Part shown: piece by piece, positions 1 through 13,586 of the stretch
Layout: each line of letters begins with the position of its first letter
Position numbering within the stretch: the first letter of the stretch is position 1
Assembly: GCA_049976425.1 (NCBI GenBank)
Contig: JBMFIG010000033.1
Location: forward strand, 1-13,727
Reading direction: 5' to 3'
Origin: Thermoproteus sp.
Lineage (GTDB): Archaea > Thermoproteota > Thermoprotei > Thermoproteales > Thermoproteaceae
DNA: 13,727 bases
The notes under the pieces: model-generated
The model's input: the letters and a program-made list of their open reading frames with translations, nothing else
The model's database searches: none
Told to the model about the DNA's origin: nothing
Translations under genes and position numbers: made by a program

Positions 1-3000
1 ATCTCAAGAAGAGGATTGAAAGTACCGCCGCTACCGCCGCTGGATATTCCTTGTAGTCGACTACATCGGAATCTCAAGAAGAGGATTGAAAGGCTCATGT
101 GGTTGCTGTCCGCAACGTCGACGCCTATGAGGAACTCGAATCTCAAGAAGAGGATTGAAAGAACTACGATCCGCTCGCCGAGGTGGTCAAATACCTCGGC
201 GGGCGAATCTCAAGAAGAGGATTGAAAGAATTGCCAAAGGCACCGAGTATGTCGTCGAGTCCATGGATACCTGAATCTCAAGAAGAGGATTGAAAGTTTT
301 ACCGCATGCCGAGCAAGTCCCAACTCAGGGAGGCCGTAAGAATCTCAAGAAGAGGATTGAAAGTGTAAAGAGGACACGTCCTCGGCCTCCTCCTCAAATT
401 TACGGACCAGGAATCTCAAGAAGAGGATTGAAAGATCATAACCACGCGCCCCTCGGCCAAGGCCTTCTTGATCTCGAATCTCAAGAAGAGGATTGAAAGT
501 CATTTCTATCTGCCTCTTCTTGACGCGCGTCAGCTTGGCCCTGGAATCTCAAGAAGAGGATTGAAAGTGAGGCTATACCGCCAGTGGTCCAACATGGGCA
601 ATTTGAAGTGGAATCTCAAGAAGAGGATTGAAAGTGAAGTGCAAACCATTTTGCAAAAACCCGGCACGCGCCGGGAGTTGAATCTCAAGAAGAGGATTGA
701 AAGCTGACCGCTATAGGCGAGGTCAAGGAGGCGGTGCTGAAGCGTAGCCGAATCTCAAGAAGAGGATTGAAAGTTCGCCAGTCGGAATATGGATGCTAGC
801 TGTGTTGCGATGAAGAATCTCAAGAAGAGGATTGAAAGTGAAGAGGAAGAACCACGGCTGTAGGAGGATCTGGGGGTTCTGTAGGAATCTCAAGAAGAGG
901 ATTGAAAGACTGTACTCACTGCTTCACGGAGGCGCGCCGCCTCCGCGGAATCTCAAGAAGAGGATTGAAAGGTCATTGCCTGTTCCGCCAGCCTGCCCCT
1001 GGCGATTTCGGTGGAATCTCAAGAAGAGGATTGAAAGGGACAAAGAGCGTTGATATTGTACAGGCAGTGGTCCGGCGTAGGAATCTCAAGAAGAGGATTG
1101 AAAGTTGAGGTGTTTGTCGACAGGAGACCCCTCTGGCTGGGCTTCAAGGAATCTCAAGAAGAGGATTGAAAGGGTAAACCTAACGTCCGGCGTACTCACG
1201 CTACAGTTCTCCACCGCGAATCTCAAGAAGAGGATTGAAAGGACAGGTCTGTGGCGCCAGTATCTCAGCGCCGCGGCGCTCAGCGGAATCTCAAGAAGAG
1301 GATTGAAAGAGCGCCGTGCTAGCCACCTGGTAGTGCTGCGAGATCTCGGGAGAATCTCAAGAAGAGGATTGAAAGAGCTGATAGACTACATCGAGTCTGT
1401 CCTCATGCAGAAGAGCCCCGAATCTCAAGAAGAGGATTGAAAGCCGACGCTACTCGACTTCATCTTCGCCGTGTCCTTCGGCGAGGAATCTCAAGAAGAG
1501 GATTGAAAGCGAACTCGTCGAAGTTGAGTATGGCGCCGGTCTTGATAGTGGAATCTCAAGAAGAGGATTGAAAGTTTTGGAAAGTGCTTTCCAAACTCCC
1601 GGCGCGTGCCGGGTTTTTGAATCTCAAGAAGAGGATTGAAAGGTCCTCCTCGTCGACAAGCTGGACAGAGGCAATATAGTGCGGATTGAATCTCAAGAAG
1701 AGGATTGAAAGATCGCCGAAACCAGCCTGTCGATCGGCGCGTACGAACACTGCGGAATCTCAAGAAGGGGATTGAAAGTCGTTGACTATAACAATGATAC
1801 CACCACGCCGCGTCACTTTGTAGGAATCTCAAGAAGAGGATTGAAAGTGCTTTTGCACGGCCGCGGCGGCGGACGCTATCCACGTGGCTATCTGGAATCT
1901 CAAGAAGAGGATTGAAAGCTATGTCGCGCCGCTGATAGCGGTACGCGACCTGCTCGACGTGACGAATCTCAAGAAGAGGATTGAAAGTATCGATATACCG
2001 TACGGTCTTTCAATTATTTCGATCCTCTGAATCTCAAGAAGAGGATTGAAAGATGGCCACAGCTACGGGGAGACCTAGCCGGCGGCTCGGTCTGGAATCT
2101 CAAGAAGAGGATTGAAAGGAACGCTGTGCCTATTGTGTTCAGCGCATTTGCGAATGTGTCGCGGATTGCGACGAGAATCTCAAGAAGAGGATTGAAAGTC
2201 TTCGCGATTCCGTGTAGCGCCTCTATGTCCGCCGCATATAGTTGAATCTCAAGAAGAGGATTGAAAGCCACCGGTGGCGCTTGCTGGACTTCATCGAGAG
2301 CTTCGATACCGCGAATCTCAAGAAGAGGATTGAAAGATTATTGTCAAGTCAGATATAGTTGAGTGCAGTGCGTTGTTCATGAATCTCAAGAAGAGGATTG
2401 AAAGACCGTCTGCGGCGCGGCGATTAAGTAGACCGTCGCGGGAATCTCAAGAAGAGGATTGAAAGTATCGGCAAGGCCGAGAGCTTCCTCTCCGCGGGTA
2501 GGGAATCTCAAGAAGAGGATTGAAAGCAAAGCGTGGCTAGCGTCACCGTGATGCTGGCAACATAGACGGCTATAGAATCTCAAGAAGAGGATTGAAAGCC
2601 TGACTAGGTTCAAGCTGACGCAGGCCGTGAAACTGCCTCCGGCATGAATCTCAAGAAGAGGATTGAAAGTAGTTCTCAAGAAGCAACGGCGCCCACATCC
2701 AGGACATCAGCGAATCTCAAGAAGAGGATTGAAAGGATAAGTCGCCCAGTGAGGTGTTCCGCGAGTCGCTGGCTGAAATTGGAATCTCAAGAAGAGGATT
2801 GAAAGTGCCTGCCTCACAGGCAGGCGGGGCTTCCGGGGAGCCTGGCAACGGGAATCTCAAGAAGAGGATTGAAAGGTCTTCTTAGGTCGAGAAATAAACC
2901 AATTCCCTTTTTTCCTCCATGGAATCTCAAGAAGAGGATTGAAAGTGAGGCACGCCCAGCTTGGGTGCGCCCCGCCGTACCGCGTCTCGAATCTCAAGAA

Positions 3001-3282
3001 GAGGATTGAAAGCAGACGACGTCCGCGCCAAGCGGCGGCGGAGGAGGAGGCGGCGGTGGGAATCTCAAGAAGAGGATTGAAAGTCGCCCCACCGCGCCCT
3101 CAAGAGGGCGTGGCGCATAGCTAAGGGAATCTCAAGAAGAGGATTGAAAGTTGGCGTTAGAAAAACCTTAGTCTATAGGATTATAAACGGAATCTCAAGA
3201 AGAGGATTGAAAGTTTGAAACACTCGATAGCCTCATCTAACGTGTCAAAGTAATCTTGGAATCTCAAGAAGAGGATTGAAAG
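1..3282 (+). CRISPR. CRISPR array, 24-bp repeat GAATCTCAAGAAGAGGATTGAAAG, 49 repeats / 48 spacers in window (continues beyond left edge)
   Basis: Repeats at 1-22 (partial), 69, 138, 205, 273 ... 3127, 3190, 3259-3282, separated by unique 37-56 bp spacers (mostly 41-47). One variant repeat (1755-1778, A1768G). The 3' end ATTGAAAG is the canonical archaeal 8-nt crRNA 5' handle, implying + strand transcription with the leader left of the window. Confidence 0.99.
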
Positions 3283-3351: not shown

Positions 3352-3927
3352 CTAGATCTTCTCTACTTTAGTCGCCTCGACTCCGCACCACTTCCTGTAC
3401 CAACAGCCGGAGCATTTGGCCGGGTGGGGGTTGGGCTGTGGGACCCAGCCTCTGTACATCTTGGCTATCTGCTCCGCTACGTGTAGGACCAGTTGCTGGA
3501 GGTCGCGGGTGTTCCTCACCTCGACGGCCCGCCCGTCCTCGGCGTAGTATATATAGCCGCGGGGCGCGGCTCTGCCGTAGACCGCCTGGGCCGCGGCGAG
3601 GTAGGCCCCCATCTGCGCCTTGTGGTGTAGCGGCGTCTTCCCGGGCCACGCCGACTGCTTGACCTCGAGCGGCGCAGGCCTCCCGCCTATCCAGAGGACG
3701 GCGTCGACGACGCCGCAGAAGCCGCCTCCTTCGAGGCGCCGCTGTCTCTCGACCGCCTCGGCCCCCAGCGCCTTGGCGACCGCCTCGACGGCCTCGTCCT
3801 GGGCCTCCTTCCCCTTCCTCATCCTCTCCGTCGGCGGCTCGGCGGCCCCCGCGACGATGTAGTAGGCGGCTGTGGGGCAGTAGAGGTACTGCCTCACGAG
3901 CGCTGGGTTAATGCAGGGCGACGCCAT
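3352..3927 (-). CDS. cas4: CRISPR-associated exonuclease Cas4
   Basis: 191 aa. N-terminal YLYCP and C-terminal CSGCWYRKWC supply four Fe-S cysteines; RecB-like motifs VDAV...LEVK and QMGAY (QxxxY). Confidence 0.95.
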   Translation of the reverse strand: MASPCINPALVRQYLYCPTAAYYIVAGAAEPPTERMRKGKEAQDEAVEAVAKALGAEAVERQRRLEGGGFCGVVDAVLWIGGRPAPLEVKQSAWPGKTPLHHKAQMGAYLAAAQAVYGRAAPRGYIYYAEDGRAVEVRNTRDLQQLVLHVAEQIAKMYRGWVPQPNPHPAKCSGCWYRKWCGVEATKVEKI

Positions 3928-4183
3928 CGCTACGGGGCGGCGGCTTGCCTATCCTGATCATGCCGTCGAGGGCCCTCTTGTCGACCTTGAGGATTATCAC
4001 GTCGGCGTTGGCCCCCCTCGTTATCCTCCTCAGCCTCTCCGCGAGCTCCTTGACTAAGGCGGGCGGGAGCCTGCCCACGAAGGCCGATCTCTGGACCCGC
4101 GAGAGGCCGAACGCCCTCAGGGCCTCGGCCACCTTGTTCCTCACGTCGTCCTCCGTTATGTCGTACACGACCACTAGGTACAT
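3908..4183 (-). CDS. cas2: CRISPR-associated endoribonuclease Cas2
   Basis: 91 aa starting at ATG 4183: MYLVVVYDITEDD..R.KVAEAL..FGLSRVQRSAF, the classic Cas2 YDI and RVQxSxF motifs. It is the C-terminal part of track ORF 3908..4747. Confidence 0.95.
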   Translation of the reverse strand: MYLVVVYDITEDDVRNKVAEALRAFGLSRVQRSAFVGRLPPALVKELAERLRRITRGANADVIILKVDKRALDGMIRIGKPPPRSDGVALH

Positions 4184-5061
4184 AGCGATCTGGCCAGAGC
4201 CCTCGCCTCTCTGTGTATTTCCGCCGACACGGCCCTCCTCCCGCCTGCGCCGAGCTCCTCCAGCACGGCTGCCGCCAGCTCCAGCCTCGATCCGCGGTCC
4301 AGGAGCCCGCCCTCGGTCTTTAGCCGGGGCGCGGCCCTCGCCACGACGCGGTCGACCCTCGGCCTCCACTGCTCCATGAAGTCCAGCACCAGGGACGGCC
4401 TCCCCGACTTGTCTACGTGCAGGAAGCCGACGTAGGGGTCGAGCCCGGCGAGCGCCAGCGACTTGAAGCAGAGCGCCTTCAGTATCCCGTAGCCGTAGTT
4501 CAGGCCGGCGTTCACGGGATCCCCGCCTTCCTGGTCCCTCCCGGGGAAGCCGGTCACCTCTCTGTACGCGGCCCAGTAGGCCTCGGCCGCCGCGGCCTCG
4601 GCCTCCATGACCCCCCTCGCGTCGCCGGCCCTCTCCAGAGCCTCCAAGGCCCTCCCCACCGCCTCGACGTAGTCGCCGTATCTCGACAGCCTCCTGCGCC
4701 AGGCCTTTATATTCTCCAGCTGTCCTCTCACCTTCCTCCAGACCCACCTCTTGGCCGTCTCCAGCCCCCTGCCGTCGACGGCGGCGGAGTACTGGCAGAG
4801 CCGTTTAGCCCCGGTGGCGTCGCCCACAGGCCTCATGAAGACGCCCAGCAGCTCGCCCCTCCCGTCGAAGACAGCGACCGTCGCGCCCGCCTTGAGGAGC
4901 GCTCTGAGGGCCCTCGTCGATATGGATATGCCGCCCGTCAAGAGCAGGACCTCGTCGACCTCGTGCAGGGGGTACTCCCTCCTCTGCCCGGCCGACTCCA
5001 CGACGAGGAGGCCTTTCCTGGCCCTTATCCTCGCCCCGTAGCTAGCGACCGCGATCTGCAT
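4174..5061 (-). CDS. cas1: CRISPR-associated integrase Cas1
   Basis: 295 aa. Contains MEAEAAAAEAYW, DPVNAGLNYGYGIL, GLDPYVGFLH and SLVLDFMEQWR, so the catalytic E/H/D residues are present. Confidence 0.97.
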   Translation of the reverse strand: MQIAVASYGARIRARKGLLVVESAGQRREYPLHEVDEVLLLTGGISISTRALRALLKAGATVAVFDGRGELLGVFMRPVGDATGAKRLCQYSAAVDGRGLETAKRWVWRKVRGQLENIKAWRRRLSRYGDYVEAVGRALEALERAGDARGVMEAEAAAAEAYWAAYREVTGFPGRDQEGGDPVNAGLNYGYGILKALCFKSLALAGLDPYVGFLHVDKSGRPSLVLDFMEQWRPRVDRVVARAAPRLKTEGGLLDRGSRLELAAAVLEELGAGGRRAVSAEIHREARALARSLCT

Positions 5062-5890
5062 GGCAGATCTCGTAGAACGGGCAGGCCTTGGGGCAGTCGG
5101 GGGCTGGCCCGGGGTCTCTGCCCGACGCCACTATGTCTATCGCCTCGTCTCTGGCCTCGAGGAACTTCTCCCTTGCGGAGTCCCCCAGCGGGTGCGCGGA
5201 CGCTCTGTACTCCACGGACCCGTCGACCGATATCTGGACGTGTATGCCGTAGTCTATGGGCACTCCCCACTCGGCCTCTATGGCCATGGCGTACCCCGCG
5301 AGCGCCGCGTCGACGTTTTGGGACGGGCCGAACTTGAACTCGACCACGGCTCCCAGCGCCACTCCGTCGGCCACCACGTAGCTCAGCCCGAGCGGCGCCC
5401 CGTCGACAGCCACCTGCGTGGCTATCGGAGCCGCGTAGAAGGCGGCCGAGTCCCTCCCCCTGGCGAGCCTAGACGCCGTCACGTGCTGGTGCTCGCCGAG
5501 GAGCCTCGTCGCTATGTGCCTATAGAGGGCCTCGGCCTTCGGCGCGAGCTCCTCCGGCAGGCCCTCAGGCGTGAAGGACATGGGCTGGCCCGCGTAGACG
5601 TACCTCTTGTAGTCCTCCAAGGCCTTGAACAACACGGCGTGTAGCGCCTGGCCCTCGGCGAGGGTCTTGTTGGGGCGCCCCCTCTCGCCGGCCACGTACT
5701 TGAGGTAGAGGTTGCGCCCAGTGGGGCAGTAGCCGTAGGCGAAGTCCGAGAGGGCTAGGCCCAGGTAGGCCGGGGGCTTCACGGGCGGCTTGTCGTAGCT
5801 CCAGCCTCTGAGCTCCGGCGACACCTCGACTTGTCCGTTGGTTATTTTAACGCGCCTCAACAACCTCGCTATCTCGAGGAGGGTTAACAC
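5042..5890 (-). CDS. csa1: Type I-A Cas4-family protein Csa1
   Basis: Probable GTG start at 5890 (282 aa, MLTLLEIARLLRR...). Has ELRGW, YCPTGRNLYL, ADG...VEFK and CPKACPFYEIC. The longer track ORF (to 6328) overlaps csa3 antisense. Confidence 0.9.
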   Translation of the reverse strand: MLTLLEIARLLRRVKITNGQVEVSPELRGWSYDKPPVKPPAYLGLALSDFAYGYCPTGRNLYLKYVAGERGRPNKTLAEGQALHAVLFKALEDYKRYVYAGQPMSFTPEGLPEELAPKAEALYRHIATRLLGEHQHVTASRLARGRDSAAFYAAPIATQVAVDGAPLGLSYVVADGVALGAVVEFKFGPSQNVDAALAGYAMAIEAEWGVPIDYGIHVQISVDGSVEYRASAHPLGDSAREKFLEARDEAIDIVASGRDPGPAPDCPKACPFYEICHADRGR

Positions 5891-5935
5891 AAACTTTCGA
5901 AGATCTCTGGGTATTATCCTTGCCCTGCTACAGGG

Positions 5936-5968
5936 GCAAAGGCTTAAATTGCAGACATCCGCAATTGA
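5936..5968 (+). promoter_or_regulatory. csa3 promoter (BRE/TATA-like) with downstream palindromic operator
   Basis: CAAAGG-CTTAAA (TATA-like 5943-5948) about 26 nt before the GTG, consistent with a leaderless mRNA. It is followed by the dyad AATTGC-agacatcc-GCAATT (5947-5966). Confidence 0.6.
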
Positions 5969-6589
5969 GTGCGGCTGGCCGTCACGGTCGGCTTCGAGTC
6001 GAAGCTGGTCATTAGGGCGATCACCCGGCTGGGGCCTACCAGAGGCGTCGTCTTCCTCCGAGGGATAACGGGTAGGGAGGGCGATAGGCAGTCTGAGGAG
6101 ACCGTGAGGGATCTTGTCAAGATATTGGGCTACGGGGAGGACGTGGCGGTGGATCTCAGGGATTTGGAGGAGGCCTTCGGCAAGCTCGCCGAGATAGACT
6201 TCGACGCTGTGGCGCTTGCGGGAGGCCCCAGGCTTCTGGTCGTGCTTGCTTTCCTCGCGGCCATGTACAAGGGGCGCGGCGTGTACGTAGTGCCCGAGTA
6301 CGATCCCGAGCCTATCGACGTGAGCCACCTGGCCCGCCTCCCCTCCATCTCCGCCCTCTCGCCCACCCGACTGAGGATATTGGCCTCTCTAGACGGCGAC
6401 AAGACCTATAGGGAGGTCGCGTCCGACGTGGGGGTGGACTCCTCGACGGCTCTGCGCCACCTGGAGGGCTTGAGGAGGCTGGGGCTTGTCGAGAGGGCCG
6501 GCGGCAGGTTGCCCAGATACCGCGCGGGGCCCGCCGTGGTGAGGCTGAGCAGAGTGCTGTTGCGTATAAAATCTCGCAGATCCTTGTAA
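5969..6589 (+). CDS. csa3: CRISPR locus transcriptional regulator Csa3 (CARF + winged HTH)
   Basis: 206 aa. N-terminal VTVGF and LAGGPR CARF motifs; C-terminal wHTH (TYREVASDVGVDSSTALRHLEGLRRLGLVER). Sits between the adaptation and Cascade operons. Confidence 0.92.
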   Translation: MRLAVTVGFESKLVIRAITRLGPTRGVVFLRGITGREGDRQSEETVRDLVKILGYGEDVAVDLRDLEEAFGKLAEIDFDAVALAGGPRLLVVLAFLAAMYKGRGVYVVPEYDPEPIDVSHLARLPSISALSPTRLRILASLDGDKTYREVASDVGVDSSTALRHLEGLRRLGLVERAGGRLPRYRAGPAVVRLSRVLLRIKSRRSL

Positions 6590-6592
6590 ACA

Positions 6593-6643
6593 GCCGAATT
6601 CTTAAACGATATTATTGCAGATATCTATATTTAAAAATTCGGC
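6593..6643. promoter_or_regulatory. Cascade operon promoter region with 14-bp inverted repeat and central operator-like motif
   Basis: AT-rich intergenic region. GCCGAATTCTTAAA (6593-6606) and TTTAAAAATTCGGC (6630-6643) form a 13/14 inverted repeat. TTTAAAAA lies about 27 nt upstream of the csa5 GTG. Confidence 0.6.
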
Positions 6644-6656
6644 ATTTCTATAGGTT

Positions 6657-7064
6657 GTGTCAGTACAGTCTAGACAAGCCCAAATCGATATAGTGTCCAG
6701 AGCCGCCGCGGCGGCCAGAATAGCCGTGAACGTCGAGATGGCCTACGACGTGGTCGACGAGCTCGCCAGAATGCCCGAGAAATACCCAGAGCTGTTCGCC
6801 CGCATATCGCGGCTGGTGTCGAAGGTCTTGAGGGATATAGAGAGGGCTAGGAAGGAGCGCGGGGCGGGAGGCGCGGACAAGGATCCCTTAGAGATAGCCT
6901 ACAGGCGCCTCTCGCTATGGCCAAAACTGCTGGAGGAGCTGTTCTCCGAGCTCGAGTCGAGGGACGAGGCCGCTAGGGCCAACATGGTCAAGAAGTTCGC
7001 CGCGCTGGCGGTGGCCCCCGACAGGTTGACGAACAAGGTGTCCGAGATCTTGCAGAGGGGATAG
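6657..7064 (+). CDS. csa5: Type I-A Cascade small subunit Csa5 (Cas11)
   Basis: 135 aa, predicted all-helical, with YDVVDELAR and KKFAALA. First gene of the operon, 1 nt before cas7, as in I-A loci. Confidence 0.82.
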   Translation: MSVQSRQAQIDIVSRAAAAARIAVNVEMAYDVVDELARMPEKYPELFARISRLVSKVLRDIERARKERGAGGADKDPLEIAYRRLSLWPKLLEELFSELESRDEAARANMVKKFAALAVAPDRLTNKVSEILQRG

Positions 7065-7065
7065 T

Positions 7066-8046
7066 ATGGTCTACCTAAGGGCTTCGGGGAGGTTCGAGGT
7101 GCAGGTCGCCGTGTTGACGGGCCAGGGGGTTATGGGGAACTACAACATGCACACTACCGTCCGCGTGGTCCACGACGGGAAGGTCTACGAGGTGCCCGCC
7201 TTGACCGGCAACGCGTTGAAGCACTGGCACTCCGTCCACGCCGCGGAGGCCTACGAGGCGCTCGGCGGCAAGATGCTGAATGAATACTGCCGAGCCGGGG
7301 TCGGGCTTAGGGGCAAGAACCTAAAGGGGCAGGACGCTGACAGCGAGGCGGACGCCATAGAGGACTTCTGCAACGATCTCCACGGCTTTCTGATACCCAA
7401 CAAACAGATCAAGAGGGACAGCTTGGCGAAGTTCGCCTTCGCAATCCCTGTCTTGGCCCCAGAGGTGCTGGAGTCGGTCAGCAAATTTGCGGTGACTCAC
7501 AATAGGGTGGATCCCACGAAGAAGGGCGAGGAGACTGAGATGATGGTGTTTAGGCAGGAGTACTCCTCAGGCCACCTCTACGGGTTCGCCGCGTCCTTCG
7601 ACTTGGCCTACCTGATGGTACCCATATACGACGTCCTCAGGGGAGGCGCCGCGAAAGCTGAGGCGAATACGGACGAAAAGATCAGAAGAGCTAGGGCGGC
7701 TTTCGCTGGCCTTATAGCCGCCATCTCGGGCGGCTACGGGTCGAAGGCGGCTAGGGCTCTGCCCATATCAGATCTCAAGGAGCTCGTCGTTGCGGTCTCG
7801 CAGAGGCCCATACCGCCTCTGGTCCACGGCGCCTATCAAGGCTATGCGGCTAAATCCCTCGACGTTCTAGAGGCGTATCTGCATATAGTCGGGGGTGCCG
7901 CTGACGTTGTGTGCTACGGCGTTGAGTGCCCCAGCGGCAGTAAGGCCAAGGTAAAACGCGCGGGGAGCCTCAAGGAGCTCGTCGAGATAGTCGATGGGCT
8001 GATAAGGCAGTATATCGGCGGCGAGAAGGCGAGCGAGAGGCGGTAG
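7066..8046 (+). CDS. cas7: Type I-A Cascade backbone Cas7 (Csa2)
   Basis: 326 aa. Motifs GNYNMH, EVPALTGNALKHWH, DLHGFL, IKRDSL, THNRV and GSKAARALPI are typical of Csa2/DevR. Confidence 0.95.
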   Translation: MVYLRASGRFEVQVAVLTGQGVMGNYNMHTTVRVVHDGKVYEVPALTGNALKHWHSVHAAEAYEALGGKMLNEYCRAGVGLRGKNLKGQDADSEADAIEDFCNDLHGFLIPNKQIKRDSLAKFAFAIPVLAPEVLESVSKFAVTHNRVDPTKKGEETEMMVFRQEYSSGHLYGFAASFDLAYLMVPIYDVLRGGAAKAEANTDEKIRRARAAFAGLIAAISGGYGSKAARALPISDLKELVVAVSQRPIPPLVHGAYQGYAAKSLDVLEAYLHIVGGAADVVCYGVECPSGSKAKVKRAGSLKELVEIVDGLIRQYIGGEKASERR

Positions 8047-8048
8047 TC

Positions 8049-8747
8049 GTGGCGTACTTTGTGGTGGATCTGGCGTTTCCATTATTCTCCATAAAGGAAC
8101 TCGACGTGTACCAAGTCGCGGCGTCCGCGCCTCTGCCTTCGCCCTCGTCGATAGTGGGGGCGGTGGGGGCTGCTATGGGCAGGGCGGGGCTGTGCCGCGG
8201 CGCCGAATGCCTCGACGTGGCCCGCAACGCGGTGAAGGTCGCTAGGCCCGTGGCGGTGGGCCGCGTGGCGAAGTCGCCCGTGGTTTTAAGGAGGGCCAGA
8301 GGGGTCCTGGAGGAGAGGGCTCTGCCCGGCGGCTTTGCGGAGTTCGTCAAGTTTTCGGACGCCATGTCGAGGGAGTACGTCTTCGCCGCCTCGATGAAGC
8401 TCCTCATAGTAGGCGACGTGGAGCCGGAGGTCCTCTACCTCATAGATAGGCTGGGCGACTCCGAGTCGCTGGCTGCTGTCGTGGGCGTGCGCCGGTACGA
8501 CGATGCGCGTAGTTGCGGGGGAGGGGTCAACGTGCCCGTGGCGAGGGAGGTCGTCAAGGGCGGTAGCTACACCTTGGTGAAGATGGCCGACGAGAGGGGC
8601 AAGCCGAGGTATTTCGCCTTGCCTGTCGTGAGGTCCGGCGGCGACGTCTACCAGCCCTCCGCGATCGAGGTGGACCGGGGCGTGCTTTGCGTCGAGGACG
8701 TGAGGTTCCCCGAGAACAAGGGACCCTCCGGCGGTTATGACTGGTGA
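8049..8747 (+). CDS. cas5a: Type I-A Cas5a
   Basis: 232 aa. N-terminal FSIK...YQVA...PLPSPSSIVGA, DAMSREY and RLGDSESL are Cas5a motifs. Confidence 0.93.
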   Translation: MAYFVVDLAFPLFSIKELDVYQVAASAPLPSPSSIVGAVGAAMGRAGLCRGAECLDVARNAVKVARPVAVGRVAKSPVVLRRARGVLEERALPGGFAEFVKFSDAMSREYVFAASMKLLIVGDVEPEVLYLIDRLGDSESLAAVVGVRRYDDARSCGGGVNVPVAREVVKGGSYTLVKMADERGKPRYFALPVVRSGGDVYQPSAIEVDRGVLCVEDVRFPENKGPSGGYDW

Positions 8748-10524
8748 GGTGAGGGAGGTCATTAAGGAGATGGTGGCTACGTGGTGTAGGGCCAGAGGCG
8801 CCGGGCCGTGCAGAGTCGACGAGAGCGTCCTGGACAGACAGGTCGCGGTCGCCAAGAGGATCGAGGAATCCGAGGGGCTCGTGGTCGTCAGAGCGCCGAC
8901 GGGCGTCGGCAAGACGGAGCTCTGGGCCGCTCCGTTCTTCGCCCAGTGGCGCACGGGGGACTGGTTCGCGCCGAGGATGTACGTCGTGGAGCCTATGCAC
9001 GCCTTGCTGAACCAGATGAGGGAGAGGATGGCCGCCTACGCAAAGGCTCTGGCGCCCGGCGTAACTGTCGGCGAGGATCACGGCGAGGCGCCGAGCGACG
9101 TGTACCTATACACGGCGGTTGTGACCTTGACGACTGTCGACGCGTTGGTGTACGGCTATCTCGCCCAGAGGGTTCTCAAATGGCGGCAACGCGGCGTGGA
9201 GACAGGCTACTACACCATGCCCTCGGGCTTGCTGGCGTCCGCCTACATAGTCTTCGACGAGGCCCACCTCATGCAGGACGAGTTCTACCTAGGCCCCCGC
9301 GTACTCGGCTCAGTGGTGTGCGACCTCGTTGAGGCAGGCGCTAAGGTCGTGTTGTCGACGGCCACCCTGCCGGACGCGTATCTGAAATACTTCAAGTGCG
9401 TCGATCTGGCCTCCAGAGGCGGGAAAATCGCGGAGGGTGTCACGGAGCTCGATCTCGGCAGAGGCTATCTGTTGGATCTAGAGGGGCCGGATAGGAAGGT
9501 GGATATAGAGCTCGTCGAGGGTCCTCTCACCGCCGAGGCGTTGAACAAACAACTAGACTGCGAGGGCCGCAACATCGTCATAGTCAACACGGTGAGGAAG
9601 GCGCGCGAGATCTACAAGAGGCTTGAGTGTGAGAGGAAGGCCGTGGTGCACTCGTTGATGAGGAAGGAAGATAGGGACGCGGCGTCTAAACGCGTGGAGG
9701 ACGGAGGCGTTCTGGTCGGCACGCAGGCGCTCGAGGTCGGCCTAGACCTCGACCTAGACGCGCTCTATACAGAGCTCTCGCCCGTGGACAGCCTTGTCCA
9801 GCGGCTCGGCAGGGTGGGGAGGAGGAGGCGTGGGAGGGCCCTCGTCTTCAAGGCCGAGGGGCCTGCGCCGTATTTGAAGGAGCTCGTGGAGCGCACAGAG
9901 AGGGAGGTCGCGCGGGATCCGTCTGCGCTGAACGTATGGTCGCGTGTCAAGGATCTCGTGAACAAGGTCTACGACGCTAAGGCGGTCGAGGAGATAGCCG
10001 AAAAGGGCGAGGGGATGTACGTCGAGGCTTTGGCCTACCTCTCCGAGCTGTCGCTCTTCTCCTATCCCCCTCGGAGGGAGGTCCTCTTGAGGCCGAGCAA
10101 CTACGCGATAATCTACATAGTCCGCGGACCGCCTCGGGTAAAGGTCGGCAGAGATGAGTTGCTGAGGGGCTTGGTTAAATTCTCCTATAGATCTTACGAT
10201 GAAAGTAGACTGAAGCTGTTCATCGACAATTTCGGCGGCACCATATACAAGGTCAAGGAGCTCGAGGACAAAGACGCCGTGCTCGAGAAGGTGGAAAAGG
10301 ATAGCCTCGTGATAGAGGCGGGGAGGCGGAGGGATGGAGAGCGGGAAAAGAGGCTGAGGGACGACGAGTTCGTCGTCTTCACCGAAGAACTCGGGGATCT
10401 GTACGACGACGCCGGAATCGCCGTAGAGAGGCTGGAGGGACGGGGCGGCGGCGTCGAGGCCTCCGGGCCGGGCGCGGCGAAGGCGAGGAAGAGGAGGTCT
10501 AGGAAGGGCTCTGGAGGGCCATGA
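8737..10524 (+). CDS. cas3: Cas3' SF2 helicase
   Basis: 595 aa. APTGVGKT (motif I), DEAH (II), STAT (III), VNTV, TQALEVGLD and QRLGRVGR (VI). No HD domain. Confidence 0.96.
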   Translation: MTGEVREVIKEMVATWCRARGAGPCRVDESVLDRQVAVAKRIEESEGLVVVRAPTGVGKTELWAAPFFAQWRTGDWFAPRMYVVEPMHALLNQMRERMAAYAKALAPGVTVGEDHGEAPSDVYLYTAVVTLTTVDALVYGYLAQRVLKWRQRGVETGYYTMPSGLLASAYIVFDEAHLMQDEFYLGPRVLGSVVCDLVEAGAKVVLSTATLPDAYLKYFKCVDLASRGGKIAEGVTELDLGRGYLLDLEGPDRKVDIELVEGPLTAEALNKQLDCEGRNIVIVNTVRKAREIYKRLECERKAVVHSLMRKEDRDAASKRVEDGGVLVGTQALEVGLDLDLDALYTELSPVDSLVQRLGRVGRRRRGRALVFKAEGPAPYLKELVERTEREVARDPSALNVWSRVKDLVNKVYDAKAVEEIAEKGEGMYVEALAYLSELSLFSYPPRREVLLRPSNYAIIYIVRGPPRVKVGRDELLRGLVKFSYRSYDESRLKLFIDNFGGTIYKVKELEDKDAVLEKVEKDSLVIEAGRRRDGEREKRLRDDEFVVFTEELGDLYDDAGIAVERLEGRGGGVEASGPGAAKARKRRSRKGSGGP

Positions 10525-11204
10525 GCTGTTGCGCCTATTGGGACGAAGGGGGGAGCTGCGTCGAGACCTACGAGAAGCATATCGAGAGGGTCTTGGAGAA
10601 GTGGAGGGTCATGCGGCCGTACTACAAAAGCTGGGTGGAGGGCAGGTTCGGGATAGACGCGGTGGAGTTGGCTATAAAATTCCACGACTTGGGCAAGCTC
10701 GCGAGGGCGTACGGAGATAGGTCCCAGAGGCGTCTCTACAGGCACGAGATCTTGGGCGCGTACTTCGCCTACAAGGTGCTGGAGGGCGATCTGCGCTATT
10801 ACGTCGCGGCGGCAGTAGCTCTACACCACGAGCCGATAATCATGGGCGTCTACGTCGGCGAGCTCGGCGAGAGCCGGCTCAATATATCGACGTTGTGGGC
10901 CATGTTGCGGGACGTCGATCTGAGCCTATCCTGCGACTACGCGCCCGCGGATCGCCCCCTGAAGGAGGCCGTGGATCTCTGGAGGAAGGGCGTGGACGTA
11001 TCCGACGTCACGGCCGCCTTTAGGGATATGTTGGCCTTCCTGAGCGCCGGGACGGCCGTCGAGAGGAGGCATAAGAGGCTCTTGGTCGCGGGCGTACTGC
11101 ACCCCCTCGTGGTGGCCGACTCCACTGCGGCGATGGAGGGCCGAAGAGGACGCGGCACCAAGATAGCGAGGGCGGCTATCTCGGGCGCTGAGCCGGGGCT
11201 ATGA
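10521..11204 (+). CDS. cas3'': Cas3'' HD nuclease
   Basis: 227 aa. H...HDLGK, RHE, ALHHE and VAD HD-domain motifs; ATGA overlap with cas3'. Confidence 0.94.
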   Translation: MSCCAYWDEGGSCVETYEKHIERVLEKWRVMRPYYKSWVEGRFGIDAVELAIKFHDLGKLARAYGDRSQRRLYRHEILGAYFAYKVLEGDLRYYVAAAVALHHEPIIMGVYVGELGESRLNISTLWAMLRDVDLSLSCDYAPADRPLKEAVDLWRKGVDVSDVTAAFRDMLAFLSAGTAVERRHKRLLVAGVLHPLVVADSTAAMEGRRGRGTKIARAAISGAEPGL

Positions 11205-12250
11205 GGTACTATACGCCCGGCCACGGGCTCGTCGCGGATTCCTTGATAATGCACGGTTTCGTGAAGCTCGTACACGTCTCGGGCAGTCTTTCTGGCAGGG
11301 TGAGGAGGCTCGGCGAGCGTTTCGAGATGGAGGCGGATCAAGTCGATTGGGATAGGTATAGGGAATGGGAGCTCCACGAGTTCGTGAAAGTTGCCGTCGA
11401 CCGCGACGTGGACGTAGGCCCTCTCGAGGATCTGCGGAGGTCCGCGATAGACGTGGCGGGCTTCCCGACTTGGAAGAAGAGGCTCAAGGAGGCCCTAGAC
11501 GTGTTGCCCACAGTGTTCGACCTCTCCGTAGATCACGCCGAGAGGTTCAAGGAAGGGCGCAGAAAGGGAGGGAAAGGGTACACGCTCTATCTGCCTATCT
11601 CGTTGACGTTTGGCAAATACAACGTGGTCGACTACAGCGTGATGGACTCGGCCTACACCGTGTGCCCCTCCTGTTTTGCCCTTGCGACCTTGGGCTACAT
11701 ATACGGCGCCACGAAGGTCAGAATCGGCGCCGGAAACGACTTCGTCGTATACAACATAGCGGCTGTCCCCGGCGACGAGCTCAACTTAGTCGACCTGGTG
11801 GCGTTGCAGAGGCTGGCCGGCTTGGTGGAGATATGGGGCGGCGAGAGGGCGGGTAAGGGCATAAACGCGTTGGGGGCTCTCGTCTATGCGCTGTCTTTCG
11901 GCGAGACCGTCATGGCCGTGGAGCGCCCGATAGATTTCGTCGTATGGCGGACAGAGCGGTCGGGCAATAACCAGAGAGCCATGGCGGAGGGGATCTATAG
12001 GGGGCGGAGGCTACTCGAGGCTCTGGCCAGGCTGAAGCTGTACTTCCCCAGATGGCCTAACGCGGTCAGGCGGCTGTCCGGCGACGTCCTAAACGCAGTC
12101 GGGGAATACCTCGTCTTCGGAGGGGATGCCTACGCGGTGGTCAGGGACATAGTCAGGGACTTGAGGTCAGACAAGAGAGGAGGCGGCGGGTCGCGGGCCT
12201 TCGACGTCGAGCCGATAGCGAAGGTCCTTTTAAGCTTGCAGAGCCAATAA
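11201..12250 (+). CDS. cas8a2: Type I-A large subunit Cas8a2 (Csa4)
   Basis: 349 aa. N-terminal YYTPGH, TLYLPI...GKY and CPSC...LGYIYG; position after cas3'' matches the Thermoproteus I-A gene order. Confidence 0.85.
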   Translation: MRYYTPGHGLVADSLIMHGFVKLVHVSGSLSGRVRRLGERFEMEADQVDWDRYREWELHEFVKVAVDRDVDVGPLEDLRRSAIDVAGFPTWKKRLKEALDVLPTVFDLSVDHAERFKEGRRKGGKGYTLYLPISLTFGKYNVVDYSVMDSAYTVCPSCFALATLGYIYGATKVRIGAGNDFVVYNIAAVPGDELNLVDLVALQRLAGLVEIWGGERAGKGINALGALVYALSFGETVMAVERPIDFVVWRTERSGNNQRAMAEGIYRGRRLLEALARLKLYFPRWPNAVRRLSGDVLNAVGEYLVFGGDAYAVVRDIVRDLRSDKRGGGGSRAFDVEPIAKVLLSLQSQ

Positions 12251-12253
12251 TTA

Positions 12254-13093
12254 GTGCGTTTCAAGGTCGAGATAAGGCCGGACGGAGAGAACATCTGGCT
12301 GGCCGGCGAGGGGCATTTGGCGGATAAGACGGTGATTATGGGAGCTCCCCGTTCCGGAAAATCCACGTTCCTGAAACTGCTCTATTCGCTTCTGGTTGAG
12401 TACGACGACGAGTCCCACACGGTCGCCAAGGACGTCGCCTCCCACGTGCTGGAGGGTGGCGGCTTCATTGAGCTGGCCGTGGAGGGGATGCGCCTGCGTT
12501 GCTCCGCGGGCCGTGAAGATGCGGAGCCGGCGTGTTCTAGGGACGGCGTCTCCAGATCCGAGCCGGTGTACTTATTCTACGAGGGCTTCGAGCTGAGCAT
12601 TAGGGAGGGCTTGAGGCCCCAGCTGTACCAGAACATGATGGCGAGGCTCGACGCCTTCGTCGCCGAGCAGAAGATCCGCGGGAGGTATGCCATATTGCGG
12701 AGCGAGGGCCGGTGGTACGAGGTCTTCGAGAGCCGGCGCATTCCGCTGAGCAACTCCTCCAACGCCGTGGCGGTCGTGGGATATCTGGAGAGGGCGGCCC
12801 GGCTGGAGAGGGGCTGGTTGTTGATAGACGGCGTCCTCGACCAGCTCTACCCGGAGGACGCGTTGTACGCCGCCGCGCAACTCTTGACATCGCGGGGTAA
12901 GGTAGTCGTGACGACACACAGCCCCTGGGTGAAGGATCTGTTCTTGTGCTATCCCTCCACGTTGAGGCTGGCCGGCCTCGACGCCGCGCAGAGGATCGAC
13001 GTGATAGCATACGAGGTGGTCAAGGGCGGGTTCATGAAAATCGACTACTCCTCGTACGGAGATATCTACAGCAAGCTCTATGGGGGCTGTTAA
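12254..13093 (+). CDS. ABC-superfamily (AAA_15/AAA_21-like) ATPase with degenerate Walker B
   Basis: 279 aa, GTG start 3 nt after the cas8a2 stop. Walker A GAPRSGKST, signature-like IPLSNSSNA, Walker B-like LLIDGVLDQLYP and H-loop VVTTHSP. Confidence 0.8.
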   Translation: MRFKVEIRPDGENIWLAGEGHLADKTVIMGAPRSGKSTFLKLLYSLLVEYDDESHTVAKDVASHVLEGGGFIELAVEGMRLRCSAGREDAEPACSRDGVSRSEPVYLFYEGFELSIREGLRPQLYQNMMARLDAFVAEQKIRGRYAILRSEGRWYEVFESRRIPLSNSSNAVAVVGYLERAARLERGWLLIDGVLDQLYPEDALYAAAQLLTSRGKVVVTTHSPWVKDLFLCYPSTLRLAGLDAAQRIDVIAYEVVKGGFMKIDYSSYGDIYSKLYGGC

Positions 13094-13586
13094 CTGTCCC
13101 TGCGTCGCCAGGTTTCTGTTGCGGAAGGAGCCGAGGTACTGCTATAAGTTTATACGTATATCCGGCTTGAGCCTTCTAGACTACAACGAGGCGAGGAGGT
13201 ATCTCGGCGCGGTGTCCGACGATGAGGTGATCCGATGTTCCGGCCAGCCGGACGACATGTCGGTGGATTGCGTGGCGGATTGCGGCGGGGGCCATATAGG
13301 CGTTGAGTTCACCACGTGGACCGACGTGGATAAGCTAGAGCAGAAGCTCGACAAGAGCGCGATGCGCAAGAAGTGCGGGGAGGAAATACGCTGTGTAGTC
13401 GTCGCGGGTCTGCACAGGGAGAATTTACCCCAGGCGCGGGAAAGGCTGGGCCGGCTTGAAAAGCGGCTGTCGTATGTCGACGAGAACGACCTCCCCAGTT
13501 TGCGGCAGAAGGTGTGTGGAGGCGATCTCGACGTGATTGTGCTGGCCCTAGGCGGTCAGGGATGTTGCAGATGTGAGGCTACTTAA
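13080..13586 (+). CDS. Cysteine-rich hypothetical protein, possible PD-(D/E)xK-fold nuclease
   Basis: 168 aa with 12 Cys, overlapping the ATPase stop by 14 nt. Motif SVDCVA...HIGVEFT is followed by a helix (DKLEQKL) and a hydrophobic strand (CVVVAG). The nuclease call is inference. Confidence 0.65.
   Translation: MGAVNCPCVARFLLRKEPRYCYKFIRISGLSLLDYNEARRYLGAVSDDEVIRCSGQPDDMSVDCVADCGGGHIGVEFTTWTDVDKLEQKLDKSAMRKKCGEEIRCVVVAGLHRENLPQARERLGRLEKRLSYVDENDLPSLRQKVCGGDLDVIVLALGGQGCCRCEAT

Follow-up and report, generated by a model that had tools for sequence, protein, structure and literature searches.

An ABC-type ATPase and a small cysteine-rich protein as a probable accessory cassette of crenarchaeal type I-A CRISPR-Cas loci

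Introduction

Table 5 of Vestergaard et al. (2014; RNA Biol 11:156; PMC3973734) lists two "Type I-specific" protein families: a "Cas ABC ATPase" with five members, exemplified by TTX_1256, and a "small RRM protein" (sRRM) with four members, exemplified by TTX_1257, for which the table gives no function. The same paper relates both families to a pair linked to type III (YN1551_2137/2138). Here we analyze the corresponding pair of genes directly downstream of cas8a2 in Thermoproteus sp. (GenBank assembly GCA_049976425.1, contig JBMFIG010000033.1; the whole stretch of 13,727 nucleotides is referred to as the window). The first gene (12254..13093, + strand, GTG start) encodes the "Cas ABC ATPase," 279 amino acids (aa) long, with a minimal ABC/SMC-type head and no coiled coil. 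The second (13080..13586, + strand, ATG start), the "sRRM" of the 2014 list, encodes a Cys-rich protein of 168 aa with a probable Hjc-like PD-(D/E)xK core. We consider it about 60% probable that this pair is an accessory cassette of crenarchaeal type I-A systems, in which an ATP-gated clamp controls a small nuclease.

Several described systems resemble the pair. Septu (PtuA-PtuB) and PARIS (AriA-AriB) share with it the arrangement of two genes, an ABC ATPase of the AAA_15/AAA_21 type followed by a small predicted nuclease. PtuB is an HNH nuclease and AriB a TOPRIM/DUF4435 nuclease, whereas the partner in the window is neither HNH nor TOPRIM; unlike Septu and PARIS, the window pair is also found only inside type I-A loci. 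Its ATPase differs from PtuA and AriA in being much shorter and in lacking coiled-coil or insertion arms and the catalytic Glu. Rad50-Mre11/SbcCD and SMC heads resemble the window pair in the ABC head, for which they are the best structural matches, and in the pairing of the ATPase with a nuclease gene. In contrast to Rad50-Mre11/SbcCD, the window pair has neither coiled coil nor zinc hook, its partner is not an Mre11-type phosphoesterase, and its Walker B motif carries no Glu. A further CRISPR-linked combination in Crenarchaeota, Cas_RecF with RFas, is described as an ABC/SMC-type ATPase that is always beside a small protein of unknown fold, with RFas at ~160-170 aa (Vestergaard et al., 2014; Shah et al., 2019, PMC6546367). 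The likeness to the window pair is by description, and Cas_RecF and RFas are linked to type III systems, whereas the window pair is linked to type I.

The window proteins align by BLASTP to a pair in T. tenax (L020), with 35% identity for the ATPase (E 1.7e-27) and 36% for the small protein (E 7.5e-14). The T. tenax Kra 1 proteins are CCC81891.1 ("predicted ATPase") and CCC81892.1 (hypothetical), encoded directly after cas8a2, and we equated them with TTX_1256 and TTX_1257 by this position. The homologues in L023 are Pogu_1142/1141, beside Pogu_1143, which was listed as cas8a2 by Bernick et al. (2012). On sequence similarity and gene position, the window genes are orthologues of the T. tenax "Cas ABC ATPase" and "sRRM"; as in the window, TTX_1256/TTX_1257 are described as a pair directly after a type I-A cas8a2, in Thermoproteus and Pyrobaculum. 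The original prediction, made from the letters of the window, had proposed an accessory module linked to Cascade. It was right in this, though the type I-A association of the pair has been known since the 2014 table (PMC3973734). We searched the literature for CRISPR-linked type I-A ATPases and found no functional study of the pair, and a search for its locus tags returned no further paper.

Among the CRISPR subtypes of Thermoproteota, I-A is reported to be the most abundant (Makarova et al., 2025, PMC12669027). The pair is a near-constant companion of this main subtype, and the best biochemical model of type I-A, the T. tenax Cascade, was built from six proteins. To the published pair we add a predicted promoter, the finding that the ATPase is naturally without a catalytic base, and four candidate nuclease residues in its partner.

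Genomic distribution

A search of 5.8 billion proteins recovered 28 relatives of the ATPase and, by single sequence, two of the small protein. With a profile of the small protein, 29 representatives were found among 1.84 billion proteins; P0068 (2426 aa), a match of the representative search, was spurious and is a PKD/Ig repeat protein. Within the order (Thermoproteales), a single-sequence search with the ATPase had a match in 16 of 62 genomes. In each of the best 8 loci, the ATPase gene stands at the 3′ end of an interference module that is type I-A or I-A-like, and in 7 of the 8 the next gene encodes the small protein, with the motifs CPC...D-x-N-E...DC...G-V-E-F-(K/T). The small-protein profile matched 13 of the 120 genomes of the class and 13 of the 401 genomes of the phylum, 11 of the 13 being in the order of the window, and added the genomes G048, G034, G025, G028, G046 and G388. 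All told, a type I-A or I-A-like locus holds the pair or the ATPase, placed at the end of the interference module or beside it, in 15 genomes (G000, G034, G037, G039, G040, G041, G046, G048, G055, G058, G060, G061, G025, G028 and G388), and the small gene is present in 14 of them (broken by stops in G028).

Cas_Csa4 was detected in 12 of the 62 genomes of the order, and the pair adjoins cas8a2 in 10 of the 12, in several orientations. The pair is also found in variant modules without Csa4 (G037, G041, G055 and G048), where it follows cas3'' in three and cas3'' with cas6 in G041; cas6 is the next gene in three of the four. In L087, the ATPase follows a variant module and the small gene is absent. 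Metagenomes provided 61 loci. Of the 34 that extend 1500 nt or more upstream, 25 carry cas genes, usually in the order csa3-csa5-cas7-cas5-cas3'-cas3''-cas8a2-ATPase-small-cas6, and of the 44 that extend 600 nt or more downstream, 29 carry the small gene. No relative of the pair was found on the viral contigs searched, and a scan of genome contigs yielded a single locus, from Pyrobaculum sp. WP30.

Two clades of the ATPase occur outside cas loci and have no small partner. One (L082/83/85/86; ATPase at 6926-7789 in L083/L085) has a normal P-loop, and the other (L091/93/95/98; ATPase at 4687-5502 in L091) has a degenerate P-loop and no middle segment. In a maximum-likelihood tree of 54 rows (a quick search only, with long branches flagged), both clades are monophyletic (SH-aLRT 95 and 100). 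Because they are nested inside the cas-linked radiation, we read them as secondary escapes.

Since the intact pair occurs exclusively in type I-A loci and the partner is lost when the ATPase leaves cas loci, the pair appears to depend on type I-A. The same distribution bears on an alternative, in which the pair, merely lodged beside type I-A, would work by itself in abortive infection or as a guard, like Septu/PARIS, with an ABC sensor that frees the nuclease upon infection or anti-CRISPR attack. Stand-alone defense systems usually move among many contexts, whereas type I-A loci are the sole setting in which we found the pair intact (15 genomes; 13 of the 401 of the phylum; no viral contig) and the ATPase clades outside cas loci have no partner. 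We consider a guard system of this kind unlikely.

Some metagenome contigs (L072, L076 and L089) carry tandem ATPase-small pairs or tandem whole type I-A modules, with cas6 after each pair. The G028 locus (L044 7566-12764) is decaying, with the ATPase gene, the small gene and cas3' each split by stops. The variant modules without Csa4 have an unassigned gene of ~280-330 aa between cas5 and cas3' (L018:6184-7098, L019:5005-6000, L022:11871-12809 and L041:2560-3411), which may encode a diverged large subunit; the L018 and L019 copies have no Pfam match at E <= 0.01.

Predicted promoter and gene overlap

The original prediction placed both genes on the same strand as cas8a2, with a 3-nt gap after it and a 14-nt overlap between them, all of which the sequence confirms (+ strand). 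It further held that there is no AT-rich promoter between the genes, and that the pair is probably co-transcribed with Cascade. We identified a TATA-like AT-rich heptamer, CTTTTAA, at 12227..12233 (+ strand), 27 nt upstream of the ATPase GTG and inside the 3′ end of cas8a2.

To place this site, we searched positions -36 to -17 relative to every start codon for the heptamer richest in A/T, and counted those with at least 6 of 7 A/T. A qualifying heptamer precedes the ATPase start in all 8 loci scanned, which represent ~6 independent lineages, at -26 to -32 (at -27 in the window), and it precedes csa5, the operon start, in 5 of 5 loci, all with 7/7 A/T. It was found at 1 of the 25 internal starts (cas7, cas5, cas3', cas3'' and cas8a2) and at 1 of 8 small-gene starts; the background rate in 20-nt windows is 0.14 to 0.21. 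The heptamer is also found in 27 of the 28 distinct upstream sequences from metagenomes, and the stand-alone ATPase clades have a crisp TTAAAAA or TTTAAAT at -26/-27. Crenarchaeal TATA boxes lie ~26 nt upstream of mostly leaderless starts, and the message of the pair would by this spacing be leaderless. A sigma-70 promoter scan was set aside, as it does not apply to archaea.

The orientation of the genes varies among loci. In three lineages (G025, G028 and G388), the pair and cas8a2 are in convergent orientation. In G034 (L042 7648-9755), the small gene is inverted, has a 4-nt overlap with the csa3 stop and converges on the end of the ATPase gene. Given the conserved TATA-like box and the three lineages in which the pair is convergent with cas8a2, we conclude that the pair is probably transcribed as a unit, from a predicted promoter of its own, rather than simply along with Cascade. 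The absence of an AT-rich promoter does not hold, and co-transcription is weakened by the box, the convergent loci and the inverted small gene. Besides using its own promoter, the pair may possibly be transcribed by read-through from Cascade. A predicted promoter of its own, in a pair that is convergent with cas8a2 in three lineages, would make independent expression possible, which counts in favor of the guard-system alternative.

The gene layout also bears on the view that the Thermoproteales Cascade includes both proteins as integral subunits, co-transcribed with the rest. The 3-nt gap after cas8a2 on the same strand fits this view, as do the same gene order in 7 cas8a2 genomes and the several loci with the pair between cas3''/cas8a2 and cas6. 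However, G025, G028, G388 and G034 have the pair in convergent or inverted orientation, a TATA-like box stands ahead of the ATPase start, and the pair is absent beside cas8a2 in G023 and G050. In addition, a pull-down with T. tenax Csa5 is reported to contain only six proteins, those of Cascade, and six recombinant Cas proteins were used to assemble the complex (PMC4005679). As this six-protein Cascade excludes the pair, the statement of the original prediction that these are not core type I-A genes stands. We regard integral Cascade subunits as very unlikely and favor the accessory cassette.

In 7 loci, the ATPase and small genes share 4 nt (ATGA); the overlap is 14 nt long in the window (13080..13093, + strand, where the ATPase stop meets the small-gene start) and 17 nt long in L019. 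The overlaps indicate translational coupling of the predicted genes and suggest that both proteins are produced jointly and work as one complex. In combination, the results support two genes that are conserved as a pair, coupled in translation and closely associated with the cas genes of type I-A, while lying outside the core Cascade.

The ABC-type ATPase

The predicted model of the ATPase (predicted local distance difference test, pLDDT, 92.3; predicted template modeling score, pTM, 0.91) has an ABC/SMC-type head fold. Foldseek matched it to the heads of Rad50, SMC, PtuA, RecF, AriA and GajA with E-values of 5.8e-9 to ~1e-5, those for Rad50, SMC, PtuA and AriA lying at 6e-9 to 3e-6. The best VIA match is the SMC head 4i99_A (Z 15.3, root-mean-square deviation 3.4, 221 residues aligned), followed by Rad50 3qf7_A (Z 14.7), AriA (14.6), PtuA (14.1), and OLD and GajA (13.2); the nucleotide-binding domains of transporters reach Z 13.0 to 13.5. 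As modeled, the head is of the general ABC type and points to no particular subfamily.

We aligned the ATPase with its relatives in two sets, A1 (21 members) and A5 (9 members). The Walker A motif GAPRSGKST (G30-T38; 12341..12367, + strand), the Walker B motif WLLIDG (W188-G193; 12815..12832, + strand) and the H-loop TTHSP (T220-P224; 12911..12925, + strand) have K36, D192 and H222, respectively, invariant across the members of both sets. D192 is followed by G, N or D (Gly in the window), and the catalytic Glu is found at this place in 0 of 21 members of A1 and 0 of 9 of A5. Only one Ser is left of the signature motif, and it is invariant in both sets. In the textbook mechanism of ABC ATPases, loss of the catalytic Glu leaves ATP binding and engagement of the heads, with poor hydrolysis. 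The absence of this Glu therefore predicts that the window ATPase would bind ATP and engage its heads while hydrolyzing ATP poorly.

The window ATPase scores below the Pfam AAA_15 gathering cut-off (18.5 vs 32.1 bits), and the homologue in L046 passes that of AAA_21 (39.1 vs 27). Among 9 diverse homologues, 6 match AAA_21 and AAA_15 at E <= 0.01. The analysis supports an ABC-type ATPase of the AAA_15/AAA_21 kind, as proposed from the sequence: the Walker A motif, the Walker B Asp, the H-loop and the fold agree with that layout, but the catalytic Glu is absent and the signature is a lone Ser.

The same 9 homologues matched PADLOC models for numerous ABC defense ATPases, among them PD-T4-4_A (8/9), NsnB (6/9, down to E 1.3e-14), AriA (6/9, best 1.1e-9), PtuA (5/9), GajA (4/9) and Old (4/9), with HEC-02A also among the matching models. 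These matches, and the place of the AriA and PtuA structures among the best fold matches, favor a guard system of the Septu/PARIS type. The window ATPase itself, however, matched only over P-loop stretches (E 1.5e-4 to 0.07, with AriA at 1.5e-4 and PtuA at 0.012), and the pair has no HNH or TOPRIM partner. The missing catalytic Glu also counts against such a system. We retain the reading of the pair as a type I-A accessory cassette.

C83 and C94 of the ATPase (12500-12535 in the window), in a beta-rich insertion, are invariant in all 21 and all 9 members and could form a disulfide or a metal site. One terminator-like site was found within the ATPase gene against 1.6 expected, which is at the level of chance.

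The small cysteine-rich protein

The small protein has 12 Cys in its 168 residues, and family members have 7 to 18. The N-termini of homologues align with the called starts of both window proteins. Among 24 small-protein sequences, D34, N36, E37, D63, C64, K92 and C99 are invariant. E37 (13188..13190, + strand) belongs to the invariant D34-x-N36-E37 and starts a predicted helix (35-44), and D63-C64 is encoded at 13266..13271 (+ strand). E76-F77-T78 (13305..13313, + strand) is more variable: position 76 is E in 22 sequences and D in 2, F77 is found in 23, and position 78 is T in 16, the window included, and K in 8. K92 (13353..13355, + strand) is a candidate replacement for the motif Lys. C146 is kept in 22 of the 24, and C-P-C is present at the N-terminus wherever the N-terminus is covered. 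The Cys residues (C6, C8, C64, C99 and C146) could be Zn or Fe-S ligands or form disulfides, which are common in Pyrobaculum and Thermoproteus proteins.

The predicted model, which is weak, has the order hairpin, helix 35-44, strands 64-67 and 72-79, helix 80-93, strand 104-112 and helix 113-126. It sets E37, D63 and E76-x-T78 as in a PD-(D/E)xK core of helix-strand-strand-helix. The original prediction had read the motif as D-x(11)-E-F-T; the D and the E-F-T are present, but the spacing is x(12), as D63-x(12)-E76-F-T78.

We compared the small-protein alignment (A4) with an alignment of 13 Hjc sequences from relatives by hhalign. The score was 20.8 over 57 columns (P 0.007), with D63, E76 and K/T78 falling on the D, E and K of Hjc, so that D63 aligns to the Hjc catalytic Asp and E76-F77-T78 to its E-x-K. 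None of 100 column shuffles of Hjc reached 20.8 (mean 11.1, standard deviation 2.0, maximum 17.7), and the reversed Hjc alignment scored 10.7; an unrelated ATPase alignment scored 17.0 over 20 columns. Hjc (PF01870), the archaeal Holliday-junction resolvase, is of similar size, and the small protein shares its D-x(12)-E-x-K spacing and has the next helix and strand in register. In contrast to Hjc, the small protein carries an additional CPC hairpin at its N-terminus, 7 to 18 Cys and, in two thirds of the sequences, a Thr for the motif Lys, and it shows no significant membership of the Hjc sequence family.

Weaker leads from the sequence point to the same superfamily. The small protein matched Pfam pPIWI_RE_REase weakly (E 0.076) and the DUF1887 nuclease 8bao_A weakly (E 0.35), the latter aligned on its D..E-C-K motif. 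Its Atlas neighbors carry PDDEXK_3, PDDEXK_11, Mrr_cat_2, MunI, RmuC and ERCC4. A comparison by hhalign with the window Cas4 aligned only the two active-site motifs (probability 0.16%). Neither Pfam nor PADLOC gave a match of the small protein to an HNH or TOPRIM/DUF4435 family. A search for longer versions or fusions of the small protein was negative, which is weak evidence. A T4 clamp-loader match (E 0.002) obtained with a 9-sequence profile was judged spurious, as it was gone with the 24-sequence profile.

An alternative is that the small protein is a non-catalytic, RRM-like or ferredoxin-like binder of nucleic acids, and that the pair is an assembly, crRNA-loading or regulatory factor of type I-A. 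The name "small RRM protein" given in the 2014 table (PMC3973734) favors this, and so do the VIA matches of residues 71-168 to the sandwiches of SepF, IF3-C, Smr and Alba (Z 4.5 to 6.3), the Thr at position 78 in 16 of 24 sequences, and the position of the small gene directly after csa3 in G034, with its 4-nt overlap. Against a binder, the invariant or near-invariant E37, D63, E76 and K92 lie on a predicted helix-strand-strand-helix core with Hjc-like spacing, the hhalign match to Hjc is above all 100 shuffles, and no Pfam RRM family matched any of the 24 members at E <= 10. Such a binder seems to us rather improbable. For TTX_1257, labeled as RRM-containing in the 2014 list, our comparison instead favors a PD-(D/E)xK core.

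We consider it quite likely that the small protein has a PD-(D/E)xK core, which fits its sequence better than RRM; the fold is not settled. Catalytic activity is less likely than the core itself, given that the window protein has Thr in place of the motif Lys. For the PD-(D/E)xK nuclease originally proposed for the second gene, the core is most likely right, with its residues in register with the Hjc active site, and the fold is poorly predicted.

Proposed role of the pair

In the accessory cassette that we favor, the ATPase and the small protein would form a complex. The ATPase would be an ATP-binding, dimerizing switch with slow or no hydrolysis, and would hold, load or license the small metal-dependent nuclease on DNA marked or opened by Cascade-Cas3. 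The outcome would be a second cutting or processing activity for type I-A interference or for prespacer supply. We infer this function from gene neighborhood, motifs and predicted folds.

Several observations weigh against this reading. The pair can be regarded as accessory and unneeded for basic interference, as the reported T. tenax Cascade has six proteins. It is absent from the cas8a2 genomes G023, which is 67% complete and has no pair within 7 kb downstream, and G050, whose Csa4 paralogues are fragmentary. G037 keeps the ATPase with only a remnant of the small gene, and the two partnerless ATPase clades lie outside cas loci beside ankyrin-repeat genes (Pfam Ank). The promoter is a prediction. 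For the small protein, the published label is RRM and not nuclease (PMC3973734), and the motif Lys is mostly Thr. Its model is weak (pLDDT 60.4, pTM 0.58); Foldseek with this model gave no PDB match at E <= 0.001 (top match YaeQ, E 0.037; HincII at E 0.28), and the best VIA matches are SepF, IF3-C and Smr-like alpha/beta sandwiches (Z <= 6.3, below the noise bar), with a bunyavirus cap-snatching endonuclease at Z 4.2. The hhalign probability against Hjc is 5.5%.

A stronger version would give type I-A immunity of crenarchaea a second effector arm, formed by the pair. In this version, a hydrolysis-dead ABC clamp would sense engagement of Cascade-Cas3, or its blockage by anti-CRISPRs, and would release or load the Hjc-like nuclease. 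This Cys-cluster nuclease, possibly redox- or metal-gated, would then cut branched or unwound target DNA or host DNA. We consider a second arm distinctly unlikely; if it exists, the six-protein Cascade studied so far misses part of the native system.

The CRISPR-Cas locus of the window

The window is an entire contig of 13.7 kb and includes a CRISPR array, an adaptation module, csa3, a type I-A interference operon and the ATPase-small pair. The array (1..3213, + strand, from a repeat search) has ~49 repeats of GAATCTCAAGAAGAGGATTGAAAG and is cut by the contig start; the repeat at ~1757 has a single G for A change. The adaptation module (3352..5900, - strand) comprises cas4, cas2, cas1 and csa1, identified by matches to Pfam Cas_Cas4, CRISPR_Cas2, Cas_Cas1 and Csa1 and to TIGR01896; the end of csa1 is approximate. 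The block of cas genes ending with cas8a2 (5969..12250, + strand) was identified by Pfam and NCBIfam matches, and csa5 by homology to other loci. The interference operon has the order csa5, cas7, cas5a, cas3', cas3'' and cas8a2, of which cas8a2 matches Pfam Cas_Csa4 (E 3.4e-38) and ends with a TAA stop at 12248-12250.

The longest cas2 ORF (open reading frame) of the window (3908-4747, - strand) has a long N-terminal extension that matches no family, with the Cas2 match at residues 189-259. The same is true of the longest csa1 ORF (5042-6328, - strand), in which the Csa1 match covers residues 149-424. The true starts of cas2 and csa1 are probably internal. The window is high in GC, and its opposite strands carry many long spurious ORFs.

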